A DNA stretch of 31,256 nucleotides from a virus (taxonomy: Duplodnaviria > Caudoviricetes), in IMG/VR virus record IMGVR_UViG_3300044267_005815, positions 1 to 31,256 of that record. One strand, given 5' to 3'. Of the stretch, positions 1 to 31,256 are shown one piece after another. The notes beneath the pieces were generated by a model, which ran no database searches, had not been told where the DNA came from, and saw nothing but the letters and a program-made list of their open reading frames with translations. Every line of letters starts with the position of its first letter. Within the stretch, counting starts at the first letter, position 1. The position numbers and the translations under genes were made by a program.

Positions 1-44
1 GGCTTTACCAATTCCACCGCGAGTCAATCAGCACGGAGGAAACA

Positions 45-440
45 ATGCCGATTGCCCTAGACCCCAGAGCCACATTTGACTATGTGCTCCAAGAAGACCG
101 AGAGCTGCCGGAAGAGCAGCAGACAGTGTTTGAGCTACGCTCCCTGACCGTCAGCGAGGAGGCCCGTGTTGCGGACTCTATGATCGCTTCAGTCCCAGGC
201 CAGGACGAGATGTCCATCAAGTCTGGTAGTTACCAACTGCAGATCCTGCGGTGTGGATTGCGGGGGTGGAGGAACTTCAAAACCACAGCGGGGACGGACG
301 CTCAGTTTGATGTGACTAAGGGAAACCCGCGTCATGTGACTGATGAGTGCCTTGATCGCTTGAGCTCCGCCAACAGAACGGAGCTCACAAACGCCATTAC
401 CGAACACTCATCCGTGTCGGAAGAAGAGGGAAACTCCTGA
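45..440 (+). CDS. Tail assembly chaperone (lambda gpG-like)
   Basis: SD GGAGGA upstream. It lies two ORFs before the tape measure gene and ends in an in-phase slippery heptamer G GGA AAC (428-434). Confidence 0.8.
   Translation: MPIALDPRATFDYVLQEDRELPEEQQTVFELRSLTVSEEARVADSMIASVPGQDEMSIKSGSYQLQILRCGLRGWRNFKTTAGTDAQFDVTKGNPRHVTDECLDRLSSANRTELTNAITEHSSVSEEEGNS
428..434 (+). other. Programmed -1 ribosomal frameshift site GGGAAAC
   Basis: X XXY YYZ heptamer in the correct phase (GAG GGA AAC). The -1 frame GGG AAA CTC CTG AAG GTC GTT GCT GCA ATG is open and continuous with ORF 455-916. Confidence 0.85.
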
Positions 441-25337: not shown

Positions 25338-25459
25338 ACAACAAAGAGATTCGTAAGGAGATCAAAAGCCTCAATAGGGCCGCATATCGTCGAGGATGCT
25401 TGTCCTTGCTGCCGATTCTTGTACCGATTGGACTGTTGGCGGCATGGTTCCTTTCCTAA
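25334..25459 (+). CDS. Small basic TM protein (41 aa, not in the ORF track)
   Basis: ATGA overlap. MNNKEIRKEIKSLNRAAYRRGCLSLLPILVPIGLLAAWFLS. Confidence 0.5.
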   Translation: MNNKEIRKEIKSLNRAAYRRGCLSLLPILVPIGLLAAWFLS

Positions 25460-25785
25460 AGCGAAGCTCTGAAGAGCAATCTTCCCCTAGAGAGCTTGCG
25501 CGCAAGCTTCGCATCCTCGTCCCCCCTACCTGGCCTGTGCAAGTTCGCACCGTGCAGCTCTCTGAGTCACATGGCGACTGTGAGCTCGTTAAAGAGAGCA
25601 AGCGTGGGCCTCACTTCCGCATCAGGCTTGCAAAGAGTCTTTCACTGGACGCCGCTCAGTTCGCTCTGATCCATGAATGGGCTCATTGCCTGAGTTGGGG
25701 ATCAGAGTCGCATCGCATCTCGCATCACGGTCCTGAATGGGGGATCGCGATGTCACGCATCTGGCAAGCCCTCATGGAGGAATAA
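25444..25785 (+). CDS. HEXXH zinc metallopeptidase (SprT/ImmA-like)
   Basis: LIHEWAH...HHGPEW motif. Confidence 0.75.
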   Translation: MVPFLKRSSEEQSSPRELARKLRILVPPTWPVQVRTVQLSESHGDCELVKESKRGPHFRIRLAKSLSLDAAQFALIHEWAHCLSWGSESHRISHHGPEWGIAMSRIWQALMEE

Positions 25786-27413: not shown

Positions 27414-28764
27414 CGCGGGATACCCCCAGTTCGTCGACGATCCGGGCGGGTTCGCTCGCGAAGTGCTGAACTTCGACCCTTGGTCGAAACAAGAAGCGAT
27501 CGGCAAGGCCCTTGTCGAAAACCAGCGAGTCTCCGTGGTCTCATGCAACGGAGCGGGCAAAACAACATGGGCAGCGAGGATCCTCCTGTGGTTTATGAAC
27601 ACTCGCAAGGGCGCGATCGTCTTGACCACTGCTCCCACTTGGCATCAGGTTGGTCTTCTATGGCGAGAAGTCAGGGCCGCGTTTGCTGAGTCCAACATGA
27701 AGTTGCCCGGAGAGCTCATGCAGACTCGCCTTGATATCTCTCCCAATTGGTATGCGATGGGCCTGTCGACCGACAAGGAGGAGAGGTTTCAAGGATTCCA
27801 CGCGAAGGGCTCGGAGCCTGGTGGAGAGGGAGGTCTTCTCGTCATCGTCGACGAGGCATCTGGTGTCGCAGACCACATCTTTGATGCTATGCGGGGCTAC
27901 CTGACCTCGCCCAACTGCTATGTGCTCCTCATCGGCAACGGAAACAGGGCCGAAGGAAGCTTCTTCGACTCTCATCAGCGAGGCAACTGGGCTCGGTTCG
28001 AGATTGCAGCGCACGATGTGCCTGAATCAATCATCTCTCGCGACTGGATCGAGGAGCAGCGCATCCACTATGGAGAGGATTCGCCTCAATGGTATGTCCG
28101 CGTCCTTGGAAAGTTTCCGCCCACAGGGGGCGACTACCAACTGTGTCCCCTCTGGCTCCTCGAGCAGTCCTGTGACACTGTGCCAGACCAAGACCTAGGT
28201 AAGCATATGGGGGTCGATGTTGCTCGATCAGGAAGCGATCAGACCGTCTGCGTAGTCACTACCGATGGCATCGTTACTAGGACCGAAGCGTGGACCGGAT
28301 CAGATCTCATGGAGACTACGCGCAGAGTTCTCGGACTTGCACAAGAAGAGGGCATCGAGGGGCAGAATGTTCATATCGACGCCTCCGGCCTCGGCGCCGG
28401 CGTAGTTGACCGCATGGCAGAAGCTGAGATGCCTGTCGACGCGGTCGACTTCGGAGCTGGGCCGCAAGGCGACTGGGGAGAACTCCTCGGGAGAGACTTC
28501 AAGGCAGCGAACAGAAAGGCCGAGCTCCACTGGGTCGGGCGCATGGCGCTCATCAACGGGATCGCCGCGGTCCCTGAACGCTTCAAGGACAACCTCTGGA
28601 GGCAGCTTCAGTGGACGAACTTTCAGTACAACGAGCGTGGATTCCTGCTCATGGAGCCCAAAGAGAAGCTCAGGCAGAGGTATGGCGCCTCGCCTGACTA
28701 CGCAGATGCTTGGTTCCTCTCGCTCTCGCGGGTGTACAGTCAGCGGAGGGTGTTCTTCGTATGA
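27319..28764 (+). CDS. terL: Terminase large subunit
   Basis: Walker A SCNGAGKT, Walker B LLVIVDEA, LIGN coupling motif, nuclease motifs GVDVARSGSD and SPDYADA. Confidence 0.95.
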   Translation: MTQQEELLDGLTKRSWAQVRQRLDSILENQDDAGYPQFVDDPGGFAREVLNFDPWSKQEAIGKALVENQRVSVVSCNGAGKTTWAARILLWFMNTRKGAIVLTTAPTWHQVGLLWREVRAAFAESNMKLPGELMQTRLDISPNWYAMGLSTDKEERFQGFHAKGSEPGGEGGLLVIVDEASGVADHIFDAMRGYLTSPNCYVLLIGNGNRAEGSFFDSHQRGNWARFEIAAHDVPESIISRDWIEEQRIHYGEDSPQWYVRVLGKFPPTGGDYQLCPLWLLEQSCDTVPDQDLGKHMGVDVARSGSDQTVCVVTTDGIVTRTEAWTGSDLMETTRRVLGLAQEEGIEGQNVHIDASGLGAGVVDRMAEAEMPVDAVDFGAGPQGDWGELLGRDFKAANRKAELHWVGRMALINGIAAVPERFKDNLWRQLQWTNFQYNERGFLLMEPKEKLRQRYGASPDYADAWFLSLSRVYSQRRVFFV

Positions 28765-28964
28765 AATGCCCTAGCTGCAACTCCTCAAAGACCTCGGTCA
28801 GGTCGACCCATTGGTCCGATGGTCTAGAAGCAGTGCGCCGGCGTCGACGGTGTGAGGAGTGTGGCTACCGCTGGGGAACCGTCGAAGTGGACGAAGACCA
28901 GTCTGGGATCATTCCCAAAAAACGACCCCCGCGCCAAAGTCGAAGCCCTCGTCGGGCCAATTAG
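28761..28964 (+). CDS. NrdR-like N-terminal Zn-ribbon protein (no ATP cone)
   Basis: MKCPSC...SVRST...RRRRRCEECGYRWGTVE; ATGA overlap with TerL. Confidence 0.75.
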   Translation: MKCPSCNSSKTSVRSTHWSDGLEAVRRRRRCEECGYRWGTVEVDEDQSGIIPKKRPPRQSRSPRRAN

Positions 28965-29271
28965 CCTCGCCAGACATCCCGGCACCATCGTCGTAGGCGT
29001 CTCGGATAACCTCCAGAGCGCATCGCTTCCAGAGGAACTCTTGTCGAGCGACATAGATCGAGGAGCTCATCATCAACTCGCCTGTCCACAAGCGGTCGCA
29101 TCTGACTACGCTGAAGAAGGCTGCGAGCTTTGCAGCGTCGAGGAGCTGAGTGTCTGGTCGACCGACCATGAGCTCCACTTGGCCTTGCTTAAATTGCACA
29201 ATCAAATCCCCCCGAAAGTTCAGGAAGAGCTGCGGCAACATCATGCCGTCAAGACCAGGCAGCCTGGGCAC
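28909..29271 (-). CDS. Hypothetical protein
   Basis: Start abuts the stop of 29271-29537; overlaps the convergent Zn-ribbon gene tail. Confidence 0.5.
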   Translation of the reverse strand: MPRLPGLDGMMLPQLFLNFRGDLIVQFKQGQVELMVGRPDTQLLDAAKLAAFFSVVRCDRLWTGELMMSSSIYVARQEFLWKRCALEVIRDAYDDGAGMSGEANWPDEGFDFGAGVVFWE

Positions 29272-29537
29272 TACCTGTTAGATCTCGAACCGCCGCTCTT
29301 CCAAGCGGATTTGACTTCCTCGAGCCCCTTGATGTGGCGCCTCAGGGAGTCGACACGCTTCTGAAGCTCGGGGACTTCAGAGTTGTCTTCCTCATGCGAC
29401 TGGGCATCCTTGTTCAAGATCTCGATCTTCATTTCAAGTCCCAGCATCGCTGCCGTGCAGCGTTCAATGTCTCTCCTGATGCGGCGAACCTTGTTCGCTG
29501 GTGTGTTCCTCATTGAGGGCTTCTTTGTTTTTACCAT
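29271..29537 (-). CDS. Hypothetical coiled-coil protein, probably leaderless
   Basis: Coiled-coil heptads; a promoter -10 lies 6 nt before the ATG. Confidence 0.65.
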   Translation of the reverse strand: MVKTKKPSMRNTPANKVRRIRRDIERCTAAMLGLEMKIEILNKDAQSHEEDNSEVPELQKRVDSLRRHIKGLEEVKSAWKSGGSRSNR

Positions 29538-29543
29538 GCATCG

Positions 29544-29572
29544 AACCTACGGTCGAAACGGTCGTATCTCAA
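29544..29572 (-). promoter_or_regulatory. Sigma70-like promoter TTGAGA-17-TAGGTT
   Basis: -35 at 29572-29567, -10 at 29549-29544, exact 17-nt spacer containing CGACCG twice, ATG 6 nt downstream. Confidence 0.55.
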
Positions 29573-29574
29573 CT

Positions 29575-29620
29575 AAATGAAAGCGGGGCGTCCCCACCCT
29601 CTCACAGGTGGGAACGCCCC
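29575..29620 (-). terminator. Probable intrinsic terminator of the leftward operon
   Basis: 14-bp stem (29585-29598/29607-29620). Its only mismatch becomes a G-U pair on the minus strand. Followed by GCUUUCAUUU. Confidence 0.6.
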
Positions 29621-29731
29621 TTGTGGGGACTGTGGTCGACTCACAGACCCCGTCGACCGCTCTAAACCGCCCTCTCACAGGCGGGAGACAATACGAGCGG
29701 TCGAATTCTGGTCAGTTCACTATTCGTCCGG

Positions 29732-30022
29732 CTAATACTCGATGTGGGCGACTCTTTCGCCGCGTCCAGTTTCACGGGGCTCTCTCGACTTGAAGATCCT
29801 AACCTCGCTTGATCTCAGCTCTTCAAGGATCGCGTCCGCAGGGGCGATCGCCTTTCGGATCATGTGATACACGCGGACACCTCCGCGCTGGATGTGGACC
29901 TCGACGCCGGAGCCGGGGCAATCGACGGTCATCGACTTGTTGATGTGCGTCACAACGCGGGGCTTCAGGCCCTGCTTGATGAAGGCGACCTTGACGATCT
30001 CCAACGCTTGAGTGGTCTTCAT
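29732..30022 (-). CDS. Hypothetical protein (96 aa) downstream of the ribozyme
   Basis: SD AGGAG 8 nt upstream of ATG 30022 (MKTTQALEIVK...). Confidence 0.7.
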   Translation of the reverse strand: MKTTQALEIVKVAFIKQGLKPRVVTHINKSMTVDCPGSGVEVHIQRGGVRVYHMIRKAIAPADAILEELRSSEVRIFKSREPRETGRGERVAHIEY

Positions 30023-30065
30023 ATCTAGTTCTCCTGTGAGAGACTGTGAGAGTCGGAAGCCTCGC

Positions 30066-30131
30066 TGGCTTCCCCGGACTCCCCCTGTGGGGAGTTTCGC
30101 CCAGACGCCATCTGGGCTCATCAGCGGGGAG
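30066..30131 (-). ncRNA. Type I hammerhead ribozyme
   Basis: Minus strand reads UCCCCG-CUGAUGA-GCCCAGA(uggcg)UCUGGGC-GAAA-CUCCCC(acag)GGGGAG-UC^CGGGGA. All core nucleotides and three Watson-Crick stems are present. Confidence 0.93.
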
Positions 30132-30139
30132 ATAGAAGT

Positions 30140-30709
30140 CTACTTGACCTCAGGCGCGCCCTCGATCCATGAGGGGGTCTCGCCGTTGCGGATGATGCAG
30201 TTCGGCATCTCCTTCCTGATCCAATGCGCGGACTCAGGGGTGAACTTCACCTTCTTGCGCCCCTGCTTCGCGCCCATGAATGCCATCGGGTTCTTGTCAT
30301 CTTGGTAGCACAGGTATCCCTTCTTGACCTCCTTCGCGATGCGGAACTCAGCGATCAGCACCTCGATCAGGGTGTCGGTGTGATCGTCACCCGCGGGAGT
30401 GAAGCCCCACTCCTTGAAGACCAGAGCCAAGGCAGGGTGAGCGTTCGCCCACTCCTTGAATGCCTTGAACTCTGAATAGGAGACCATGTCCGCTAAATTT
30501 TCTGTCCGACCGATGGGATCGACCATCATTTCACCTCCGCATCCTTCATCGAAGAATCTGGCGACCTTGCCCTTGGTCGGATGGTGGATCTCGCCGCGGC
30601 AACCCATGCCGTCCATGCCCTCCCACTCCTTGAACTTCTTGACGATGTAGGGAGGGGTCTGGGCCTGGTGGGAGGTGTGGTCTACGGACGGAATGGTTGA
30701 ATTAGACAT
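30140..30709 (-). CDS. Hypothetical phage protein (early-gene type)
   Basis: SD AGGAG. The YIVKKFKEWEGMDG...KVARFFDEGCGG pattern recalls an uncharacterised phage family. Confidence 0.75.
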   Translation of the reverse strand: MSNSTIPSVDHTSHQAQTPPYIVKKFKEWEGMDGMGCRGEIHHPTKGKVARFFDEGCGGEMMVDPIGRTENLADMVSYSEFKAFKEWANAHPALALVFKEWGFTPAGDDHTDTLIEVLIAEFRIAKEVKKGYLCYQDDKNPMAFMGAKQGRKKVKFTPESAHWIRKEMPNCIIRNGETPSWIEGAPEVK

Positions 30710-30721
30710 AGTTGGTTCTCC

Positions 30722-30754
30722 TGAACGGTTGAATTGTGAACGGTCGAATTGTGA
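30722..30754. repeat. 15-bp tandem repeat x2 (TGAACGGTYGAATTG)
   Basis: Copies at 30722-30736 and 30737-30751, one mismatch, in the leader of 30140-30709. Confidence 0.8.
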
Positions 30755-30794
30755 GAGGTTGAGTTCTAGTAAGAGGTCAGATCTGAGCAGCTCA

Positions 30795-30863
30795 GAGGCG
30801 AGCTGGAGAGGAGCTGAGAGGCGAGCTGGAGAGGAGCTGAGAGGCGAGCTGGAGAGGAGCTGA
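30795..30863. repeat. 23-bp perfect tandem repeat x3 (GAGGCGAGCTGGAGAGGAGCTGA)
   Basis: Exact copies at 30795, 30818 and 30841; intergenic. Confidence 0.95.
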
Positions 30864-30896
30864 GTCCCGCACCCTGGTCCTCGCCAGTCGCTGGGA

Positions 30897-31154
30897 TTAG
30901 GCCCAGCCGCGTCCCTCGATGGCGAGGAAATCCACGGCGTAGGACAAGAGAGTGAAGGCGCGGCGAACCTTGAAGGACTGAGTGGGCCAAGTCATCACGA
31001 TGACCCAGCCGCTGTCCGTATGATCGACCGTTGCCTCCACGGGACTTGAGTCCCGGCGAGACACCCCGTGGATCATCGTGCCCTCTCCGGTCTGCAGAGA
31101 CTGCAGGTGGAGGGACAGGACGCCGCGAGGAGACAGATTAGAGAGTTGATCCAT
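30897..31154 (-). CDS. Hypothetical protein
   Basis: SD GGAGG upstream of ATG 31154. Confidence 0.65.
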   Translation of the reverse strand: MDQLSNLSPRGVLSLHLQSLQTGEGTMIHGVSRRDSSPVEATVDHTDSGWVIVMTWPTQSFKVRRAFTLLSYAVDFLAIEGRGWA

Positions 31155-31256
31155 TGGGATCCTCCGAAGTTGTTAGAGAGCGTGAGAGCGCCCGTGCGTG
31201 GGCCTGAGACCTCCATCAATGCAGGAGGCGACGCTCGCCGCTGTGGCGAGTGCGTC

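Follow-up and report, generated by a model that had tools for sequence, protein, structure and literature searches.

The short gap between two small genes of a marine phage raises the question of whether the messenger RNA read through it cuts itself and, if so, what such a cut would do for the genes on either side. The stretch analysed here, which we call the window, spans all 31,256 bases of a virus record and encompasses terminase, resolvase, helicase and primase genes, and the sequencing runs that contain this virus are seawater or marine metagenomes. No RNA run is listed among them, and two RNA runs from a sample with this DNA gave no alignment to it, neither of which bears on whether the region is transcribed. 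The gap belongs to a leftward run of small genes without known family that encode proteins of 85, 189, 96, 88 and 120 aa, and two of these genes bound it:

30140..30709, minus strand: upstream gene, an ORF for a 189-aa protein, with its UAG stop at 30142-30140, 9-10 nt before stem I of the putative ribozyme
29732..30022, minus strand: downstream gene, an ORF for a 96-aa protein of no known family, with its ATG starting at 30022

No families were found for the flanking proteins by PHROG, Pfam, profile search or Atlas. The 189-aa protein, without a PHROG or Pfam match, has eight homologs counting itself (49-100% identity), and its Atlas matches are unnamed viral proteins; the 96-aa protein has two homologs (94% and 78%) and an exact, letter-for-letter copy in Atlas; the 88-aa protein yields only weak coiled-coil matches, below the cut-off. 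An SD-like AGGAG (30035-30031) lies 8 nt before the ATG of the 96-aa gene. A sigma-70-type promoter was not found in 28700-31256, and the minus strand has several terminator-like hairpins, among them 29620-29585 and 28942-28923. Two kinds of repeats were seen in this operon. A pyrimidine-rich unit of ~22 nt is present in about three tandem copies (30865-30790, minus strand) ahead of the 189-aa gene. This gap differs in L002 and L005, in which the upstream stop is lost and the frame continues into the 189-aa gene. The motif WTTCRACCG occurs in six copies in the window, four of them in intergenic gaps of the leftward operon (30749, 30734, 29706 and 29558, minus strand), and is a possible operator or leader module.

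The minus strand of the gap, from 30130 to 30066, spells a complete type I hammerhead with a perfect core and three stems of 6-7 bp, with the following parts:

30125..30130, minus strand: 5' strand of stem I, 5 bp by the family register, 6 bp possible
30118..30124, minus strand: catalytic core CUGAUGA (C3-A9), read from the sequence and invariant in the family alignment by the design of the search
30117-30111 with 30105-30099, minus strand: stem II, seven Watson-Crick bp with an opening G-C pair, from sequence and fold
30110-30106, minus strand: loop II, UGGCG, 5 nt, in which GGC or UGGC is the putative pseudoknot donor
30095..30098, minus strand: core GAAA (G12, A13, A14, A15.1), read from the sequence
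30095-30089 with 30084-30078, minus strand: stem III hairpin, 7 bp including A15.1-U16.1, with a 4-nt loop, from sequence, descriptor and variant contigs
30079-30077, minus strand: GUC triplet, with the cut predicted between 30077 and 30076 from established hammerhead chemistry
30071..30076, minus strand: 3' strand of stem I and first bases of the predicted 3' product, pairing with 30130-30125
30066..30069, minus strand: putative pseudoknot acceptor GCCA, cut+8 to +11, from the family register test and covariation

The core bases that define the hammerhead class, as listed in the methods of PMC3088659, are all present (C3 U4 G5 A6 N7 G8 A9, G12 A13 A14 A15.1, U16.1 H17). Three helices flank the core with the pairs 1.1-2.1, 10.1-11.1 and 15.1-16.1 and comprise 6, 7 and 7 pairs, all of them Watson-Crick; none of these 20 pairs and none of the core bases is disrupted. 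Because loops close stems II and III and stem I stays open, the topology is type I. The family register described below points to a stem I of 5 bp followed by a 2-nt AA linker. With regard to the setting in phage and prophage gene runs, the element is intergenic and on the sense strand, with ORFs on either side. A first-pass annotation of this DNA had described the same stems, core, GAAA, GUC and cut, including the 7-bp stem II that opens with a G-C pair, and every coordinate that it gave agrees with the sequence. It had also placed the element on the sense strand of the operon about 10 nt past the upstream stop, and counted a 54-nt leader for the downstream cistron, which is the distance from the cut to the ATG at 30022. 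Its loop II, given as UGGC, is indeed complementary to GCCA, but the loop is actually one of 5 nt.

The hammerhead assignment made in that annotation is borne out by independent searches. A descriptor for all three hammerhead topologies, applied to both strands of the window, found this one site only, as type I. Among 500 dinucleotide shuffles of the window, none contained a site with all stems of at least 6 bp, three contained one with all stems of at least 4 bp, and 67 contained one at the loosest setting; a core pattern matched once in the window and not at all in 100 shuffles. The minimum free energy (MFE) fold of 30140-30060 is the hammerhead, and the folding energy by itself is unremarkable (z -1.63). 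A covariance model built from 67 other phage hammerheads, without the element, scores the element at 65.1 bits, and the next match in the window at 15 bits. Neither the descriptor nor this family model detects a second hammerhead in the window, so that excision or circularisation between two ribozymes is unsupported within this incomplete 31-kb contig.

Searches with Rfam, which the first-pass annotation had proposed as a check, gave a divided result, with no match in the window at gathering thresholds and a sub-threshold one in E-value mode. Over the whole window and L002, the latter mode yielded only a weak match to RF03152 (RAGATH-1-hammerhead; 34.4 bits, E 0.0022, cut-off 56.3), in which 13 nt of stem II remain unaligned because stem II of the model is 1 bp long. 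RF00163 (Hammerhead_1; gathering threshold 34 bits) did not report the element at E<=10. The same annotation held that an absent covariance-model match would refute the ribozyme, which proves to be unsafe given that the Rfam thresholds miss the whole group: at 20 look-alike loci, no Rfam hammerhead model reaches its cut-off, and RF00163 scores are 20-27 bits versus 34. The missing match is thus a gap in Rfam and no refutation. When the family model was run over loci of the GCCA type, the element ranked seventh of 37 (range 34-70 bits), and nine loci in bacterial genomes from several phyla scored 54-66 bits. By score, the element lies outside both RF03152 and RF00163. It shares with RF03152 the type I topology, the core and the long stem III, and a possible counterpart of the model's small hairpin 5' of stem I is predicted:

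30135..30151, minus strand: small hairpin of 5-6 bp across the upstream stop codon, predicted by MFE folds and aligned to the 5' hairpin of RF03152

This predicted hairpin overlaps the coding end and aligns with gaps. Unlike the element, with its 7-bp stem II, the RF03152 model has a stem II of 1 bp and stops at stem I, without a 3' pseudoknot acceptor; with RF00163, the element has in common the type I topology and the core.

The pseudoknot proposed in the first-pass annotation between loop II and the GCCA beyond stem I can be examined across the phage family. An initial IMG/VR search, with the core and a GCCA fixed at cut+8, gave 65 loci with 51 distinct cores, of which 42 fold as type I; GGC is present in loop II of 31 of these (UGGC in 14) and in 3 of the 9 non-folding cores. 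We then used a pattern consisting only of the core and the linker, with the pseudoknot letters free, and scanned 8 of the 64 parts of the IMG/VR collection. It detected 122 loci, which by estimate corresponds to ~1100 IMG/VR stretches, and 126 matches, 116 of them distinct and 92 folding as type I. In 53 of the 92, loop II is complementary to cut+8..+10 (3 bp), compared with a mean of 20.9 with the tails swapped (0 of 500 swaps as high), and 4-bp pairing occurs in 24 of the 92 versus 6.9 expected, by a tail-swap control that ignores kinship among the members. There is no excess at cut+6, +11, +13, +16 or +21, and neighbouring, overlapping offsets are also high. The pairs are of many types: GGU/ACC in 19 members, GGC/GCC in 5, AGU/ACU and GGG/CCC in 4 each, and GGA/UCC, GUU/AAC and UGC/GCA in 3 each. 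This variety argues for a real contact despite the kinship left in the controls.

For alignment, 67 of the 92 members were chosen by stem II length, with the copy of the window element excluded. Stems I, II and III are paired in 98, 89 and 98% of the cells and the pseudoknot in 65.5%, and all four pseudoknot pairs show double changes. The family comparison argues for a pseudoknot of three core pairs plus an optional fourth, absent in some members, and the proposed contact is upheld by its register in the family and by covariation across unrelated phages. By all features that can be tested computationally, the element belongs both to the hammerhead class and to the phage group with the pseudoknot. 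The motif is real, and the ribozyme is very probably active.

The position of these ribozymes relative to genes is equally regular. An SD-like site followed by an open ATG is found downstream in 65 of 90 members, as opposed to 2 of 89 on the opposite strand, and in 48 of the 65 it lies 21-38 nt from the cut. Upstream, 23 of 41 members have a stop codon that ends a frame of at least 60 codons at -3..+12 nt from stem I, compared with 1-4 of 41 in shifted windows; in the set with shorter flanks, where frames of at least 25 codons were counted over the same span, the values are 53 of 90 and 16-19 of 89. With a stop abutting stem I and an SD and ATG after it, the ribozymes of this family fill the sense-strand gap between two genes. 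The group is large yet lies below the Rfam thresholds and, accordingly, is missed by annotation pipelines. In several other phages and a Verrucomicrobia MAG, family hammerheads occur in pairs 300-530 nt apart that apparently bracket single genes (L126, L132, L172, L183, L021, L035 and L208), an arrangement described in 2011; at L148, a tRNA (15-86, plus strand) lies ~60 nt upstream of a family hammerhead.

The closest relatives of the virus say less about selection on the fold than a more divergent lineage does. L001, L002 and L005 all carry the ribozyme without a single change, and the identity in L002 is uninformative because equally long identical runs occur in coding DNA. Variant contigs from the marine runs X11, X13 and X17 carry, on the minus strand and with loose ends, the GAAA, a stem III with a UUCG loop, the GUC and an unchanged 3' strand of stem I. 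Their stem III retains all seven pairs through three compensatory swaps (U-A to C-G, C-G to U-A and C-G to U-A), which is covariation of the kind that the first-pass annotation suggested looking for in related phage contigs. Over 30046-30079 these contigs agree with the window at 31 of 34 nt, and beyond that the leader diverges; in X17, a contig also matches 30094-30160 with three differences and one gap, which indicates that the variant sits after the same upstream gene end. The variant contigs are of low depth, and the variant was never seen whole; a search of IMG/VR did not recover the stem III variant.

Between the cut and the downstream gene, the 54-nt leader contains a structure that the first-pass annotation had missed:

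30055..30073, minus strand: predicted competing 7-bp hairpin (30073-30067 with 30061-30055), -11.2 kcal/mol
30023..30054, minus strand: remainder of the leader, with two 4-bp hairpins, two CUCUCACAG copies and the AGGAG at 30035-30031

The predicted hairpin would start 3 nt in from the 5' terminus of the 3' product and sequester the pseudoknot acceptor together with 3 nt of stem I; the 4-bp pseudoknot duplex is worth -4.2 kcal/mol versus -11.2 for the hairpin. Only 1 of the 92 family members, the window element itself, has such a hairpin, and it arises in 0.0015 of shuffled leaders, in a test devised post hoc. A search of IMG/VR for other hammerheads with the same tail hairpin found none: of the four loci recovered, two were the close relatives and two were not ribozymes. 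When folding is computed step by step, transcripts that end at 30071-30055 have the hammerhead as their MFE structure, which is mostly lost past 30050. The probability of the hammerhead helices is ~0.4-0.5 for transcripts ending at 30066, ~0.07-0.16 at 30050 and <0.04 past 30030, as computed by equilibrium folding with ViennaRNA, in which the pseudoknot does not count. By the same equilibrium test, stem I exceeds a probability of 0.5 in just 18 of 90 family members, so that the test underrates the family in general. Predicted SD access is 0.33 both before and after the cut, and we rejected a switch in which cleavage unlocks the ribosome-binding site, given that this access is unchanged.

We consider it likely that, while the leftward multi-gene mRNA is being transcribed, the hammerhead cuts it after C30077 and thereby frees the message of the 96-aa gene with a 5'-OH and a protective hairpin. 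The proposal starts from what is established: the core and the three stems, membership in the family, pseudoknot pairs that covary across that family, and a location after a stop codon and before an SD with ATG. The splitting of the polycistronic mRNA, which we infer, is consistent with that position across the family. The ribozyme would fold and cut co-transcriptionally between 30077 and 30076; it presumably has a head start in folding, as the polymerase reaches the competing strand (30061-30055) ~5-11 nt past the pseudoknot acceptor. In the hammerhead reaction, the attacking group is the 2'-OH of C17, and the pseudoknot keeps stem I parallel to stem II, which makes for fast cleavage at low Mg2+. 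Cleavage after C17 leaves a 2',3'-cyclic phosphate upstream and a 5'-OH downstream, as covered in PMC8782182 and generally known. After the cut, the hairpin 30073-30055 would form, pull the product off stem I, prevent re-ligation and cap the 5' end, and the freed message of ~500 nt would run as far as the terminator-like hairpin near 29575. Nucleases that depend on the 5' end are slowed by a 5'-OH. The folding model predicts a brief window for cleavage and a hairpin-capped product with a 5'-OH that resembles the product of RiboJ, and the purpose would be separate, differently stable messages for the genes of the small-gene operon.

The putative 3' end of the freed message falls in a structured region behind the 96-aa gene:

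29575..29706, minus strand: three-hairpin element, each hairpin with CUGUGAG; fold z -5.84, weaker on the plus strand

The last of these hairpins is terminator-like and may end the processed mRNA. The element was found in the two close relatives only, with one compensatory change in L002. Two of its three hairpins carry CCUGUGAGAG, which is exactly complementary to 30042-30033, a segment that overlaps the SD of the 96-aa gene. As a free duplex, this pairing is worth -17.9 kcal/mol, and CCUGUGAGAG is also partly complementary to the leader of the 189-aa gene; nested folding gave no pairing of the loops with the leader, kissing pairs being outside the scoring of the method. All five CTCTCACA words of the window lie within 29599-30757. 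The element could be a terminator combined with a kissing or antisense element, or a protein-binding array.

A second class of self-cleaving RNA accompanies relatives of the upstream gene. L006 and L007 encode homologs of the 189-aa protein (49-56% identical) and have no hammerhead after the gene; instead, the gene run has a twister-P1-like ribozyme ahead of the homolog, with scores of 39.3 and 54.9 bits against a cut-off of 67.2:

L006 136-201 and L007 2044-2109, plus strand: twister-P1-like ribozyme, below the Rfam cut-off, before a shared ORF of ~29 codons and the 189-aa homolog

Like the hammerhead, twister-P1 (RF03160) in phage gene clusters is self-cleaving and located between small phage genes; it differs in its unrelated fold and catalytic core and in lying upstream rather than downstream of the shared 189-aa gene. 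The twister of G001 was rejected as an occupant of the orthologous slot, G001 sharing with the window just the 189-aa gene and a 29%-identical helicase. The twister-bearing runs have further genes in common (L006 1406-2254 with L007 4174-4980, and L006 2432-2950 with L007 5700-6188). One of these shared genes presumably resembles base-modification enzymes and one an SprT-like protease; the window, too, has an SprT-like gene (25396-25785). By eye, short GC-rich self-complementary stretches stand between the upstream stop and the twister (L006 ~112-135 and L007 ~2005-2043), which may be post-stop hairpins or knots. Starting at the stop codon ahead of the ribozyme, nine letters agree between the window (30142-30134, minus strand) and L007 (2002-2010), despite different genes and ribozyme classes; this may be chance. 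As the rest of the distant phage genome is unrelated, the pattern is one of gene-ribozyme association, as reviewed in PMC6765202, and no swap at a single slot. That review describes ribozyme classes as interchangeable in shared phage gene contexts and treats the role of many self-cleaving ribozymes in phage operons as still open.

The predicted competition between the hairpin and the active fold suggests an alternative to constitutive cutting, which we regard as possible if unlikely: cleavage would be partial and regulated by a kinetic switch, such that the RNA cuts only before the hairpin 30073-30055 forms and while stem I is free of a terminating ribosome. The fraction of RNA cut and the balance between the two proteins would then depend on how fast the polymerase moves and on translation of the upstream gene. 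In the predictions, the hairpin does win once it has been transcribed, and its rarity among family members and shuffled leaders makes it unusual; yet it is explained equally well as a cap that forms after the cut. The variant lineage keeps most of 30046-30079 although its stem III and leader differ, but the three differences in that segment are not locatable, and the variant is absent from the IMG/VR matches. The ribosomal part of the argument draws on the family, where the upstream stop usually abuts stem I, a spacing that compact phage genomes would produce anyway. A ribosome footprint extends ~9-12 nt past the stop codon, and the stop-to-stem gap of 9-10 nt is at its edge. When pairing is forbidden up to 30128, the stem I base-pair probability for a transcript ending at 30066 drops to 0.07, whereas masking to 30131 leaves stem I at 0.93. 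Thus, this copy is at the margin of ribosome coverage.

In a bolder form, the element would be a self-disarming natural RiboJ, in which the RNA cuts only before the hairpin takes the pseudoknot strand, the hairpin then caps the product and, family-wide, terminating ribosomes cover stem I and gate cleavage. We advance this combined proposition tentatively and consider it rather improbable as a whole. RiboJ raised mRNA about twofold and protein two- to tenfold according to PMC6206723, and the post-cleavage hairpin is thought to stabilise the mRNA (PMC6206723, PMC7536230). The likeness consists in a hammerhead followed by a hairpin that the product retains at its 5' end, before the ribosome-binding site. 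RiboJ is engineered, with its hairpin appended downstream, whereas the predicted hairpin in the window is a natural one that uses bases of stem I and of the pseudoknot, which makes it mutually exclusive with the active fold.

The cut might instead mainly serve the upstream message, giving it a 3' end 63 nt past the stop, with stems II and III and the cyclic phosphate acting as a guard or a decay entry and the downstream gene being incidental. The type I topology does leave the catalytic bulk on the upstream fragment, two strong hairpins would stay at the 3' end of that fragment, and predicted SD access is unaffected by cleavage. The tight distance to the downstream SD and ATG across the family speaks against this view, as does the hairpin predicted exactly at the new 5' end in the window, and we find it quite unlikely that the upstream message is the main beneficiary; the two roles are not exclusive.

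That the element is a disabled relic, a once-working hammerhead now blocked by the downstream hairpin and no longer cutting, appears very unlikely. Equilibrium folding of longer transcripts disfavours the active fold, and 4 of the 18 consensus hammerheads assayed in PMC3088659 were inactive; however, that folding test also fails most of the family, the core and helices are intact here, and the variant lineage altered stem III solely by compensatory changes while keeping the same tail region, which implies selection on the fold. A coding reading, in which a 129-aa frame starts at the AUG of the core (30121) and runs on through the downstream gene (30121-29732, also open in L002) and the fold is incidental, is hardly credible, and we rejected this AUG as a start, given that across 65 members the core AUG is distributed 20/26/19 over the three frames, with just 6 members in which it is both in frame and open, that no SD precedes 30121 while AGGAG precedes 30022, and that Atlas holds the exact 96-aa form.

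Co-transcriptional splitting of the operon message, the reading that we favour, agrees with what is known of this kind of RNA. According to PMC3088659 (Perreault 2011), 14 of 18 consensus hammerheads were active, pseudoknots occur in ~40% of representatives and in all three types, some copies are intergenic in prophages, polycistronic prophage constructs were cleaved, and the proposed role is the cutting of long transcripts to single-gene mRNAs. The pseudoknot was needed for fast cleavage at physiological Mg2+, as shown there for a type II RNA. The window element resembles the phage hammerheads of that study in its consensus core, in a putative pseudoknot that replaces loop-loop contacts and in its intergenic location in a phage gene run; unlike the tested example, it is type I, and it is a single copy rather than part of a cluster. 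The main text of Perreault 2011 mentions neither stop codons nor ribosomes, and the parts of it compared here do not describe a hairpin that seizes the pseudoknot strand. Our literature search, which left out most subscription literature, found no relevant paper on ribosome- or stop-codon-linked control of natural phage hammerheads.

This kind of ribozyme has been known since 2011 and is abundant, and the competing hairpin is the one new detail; as an ordinary family member, the element by itself changes little. Together with the family-wide closeness to stop codons, the exclusive hairpin makes a regulatory reading testable. The locus offers a test case with a single ribozyme, a 54-nt leader, a fold-excluding hairpin, a likely terminator 500 nt on and natural variants, which bears on whether cutting is constitutive or depends on the speed of transcription and on translation upstream. 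If the self-disarming scheme were true, phage hammerheads would be translation- or speed-sensing switches that set the ratios within small-gene operons and not constitutive scissors.
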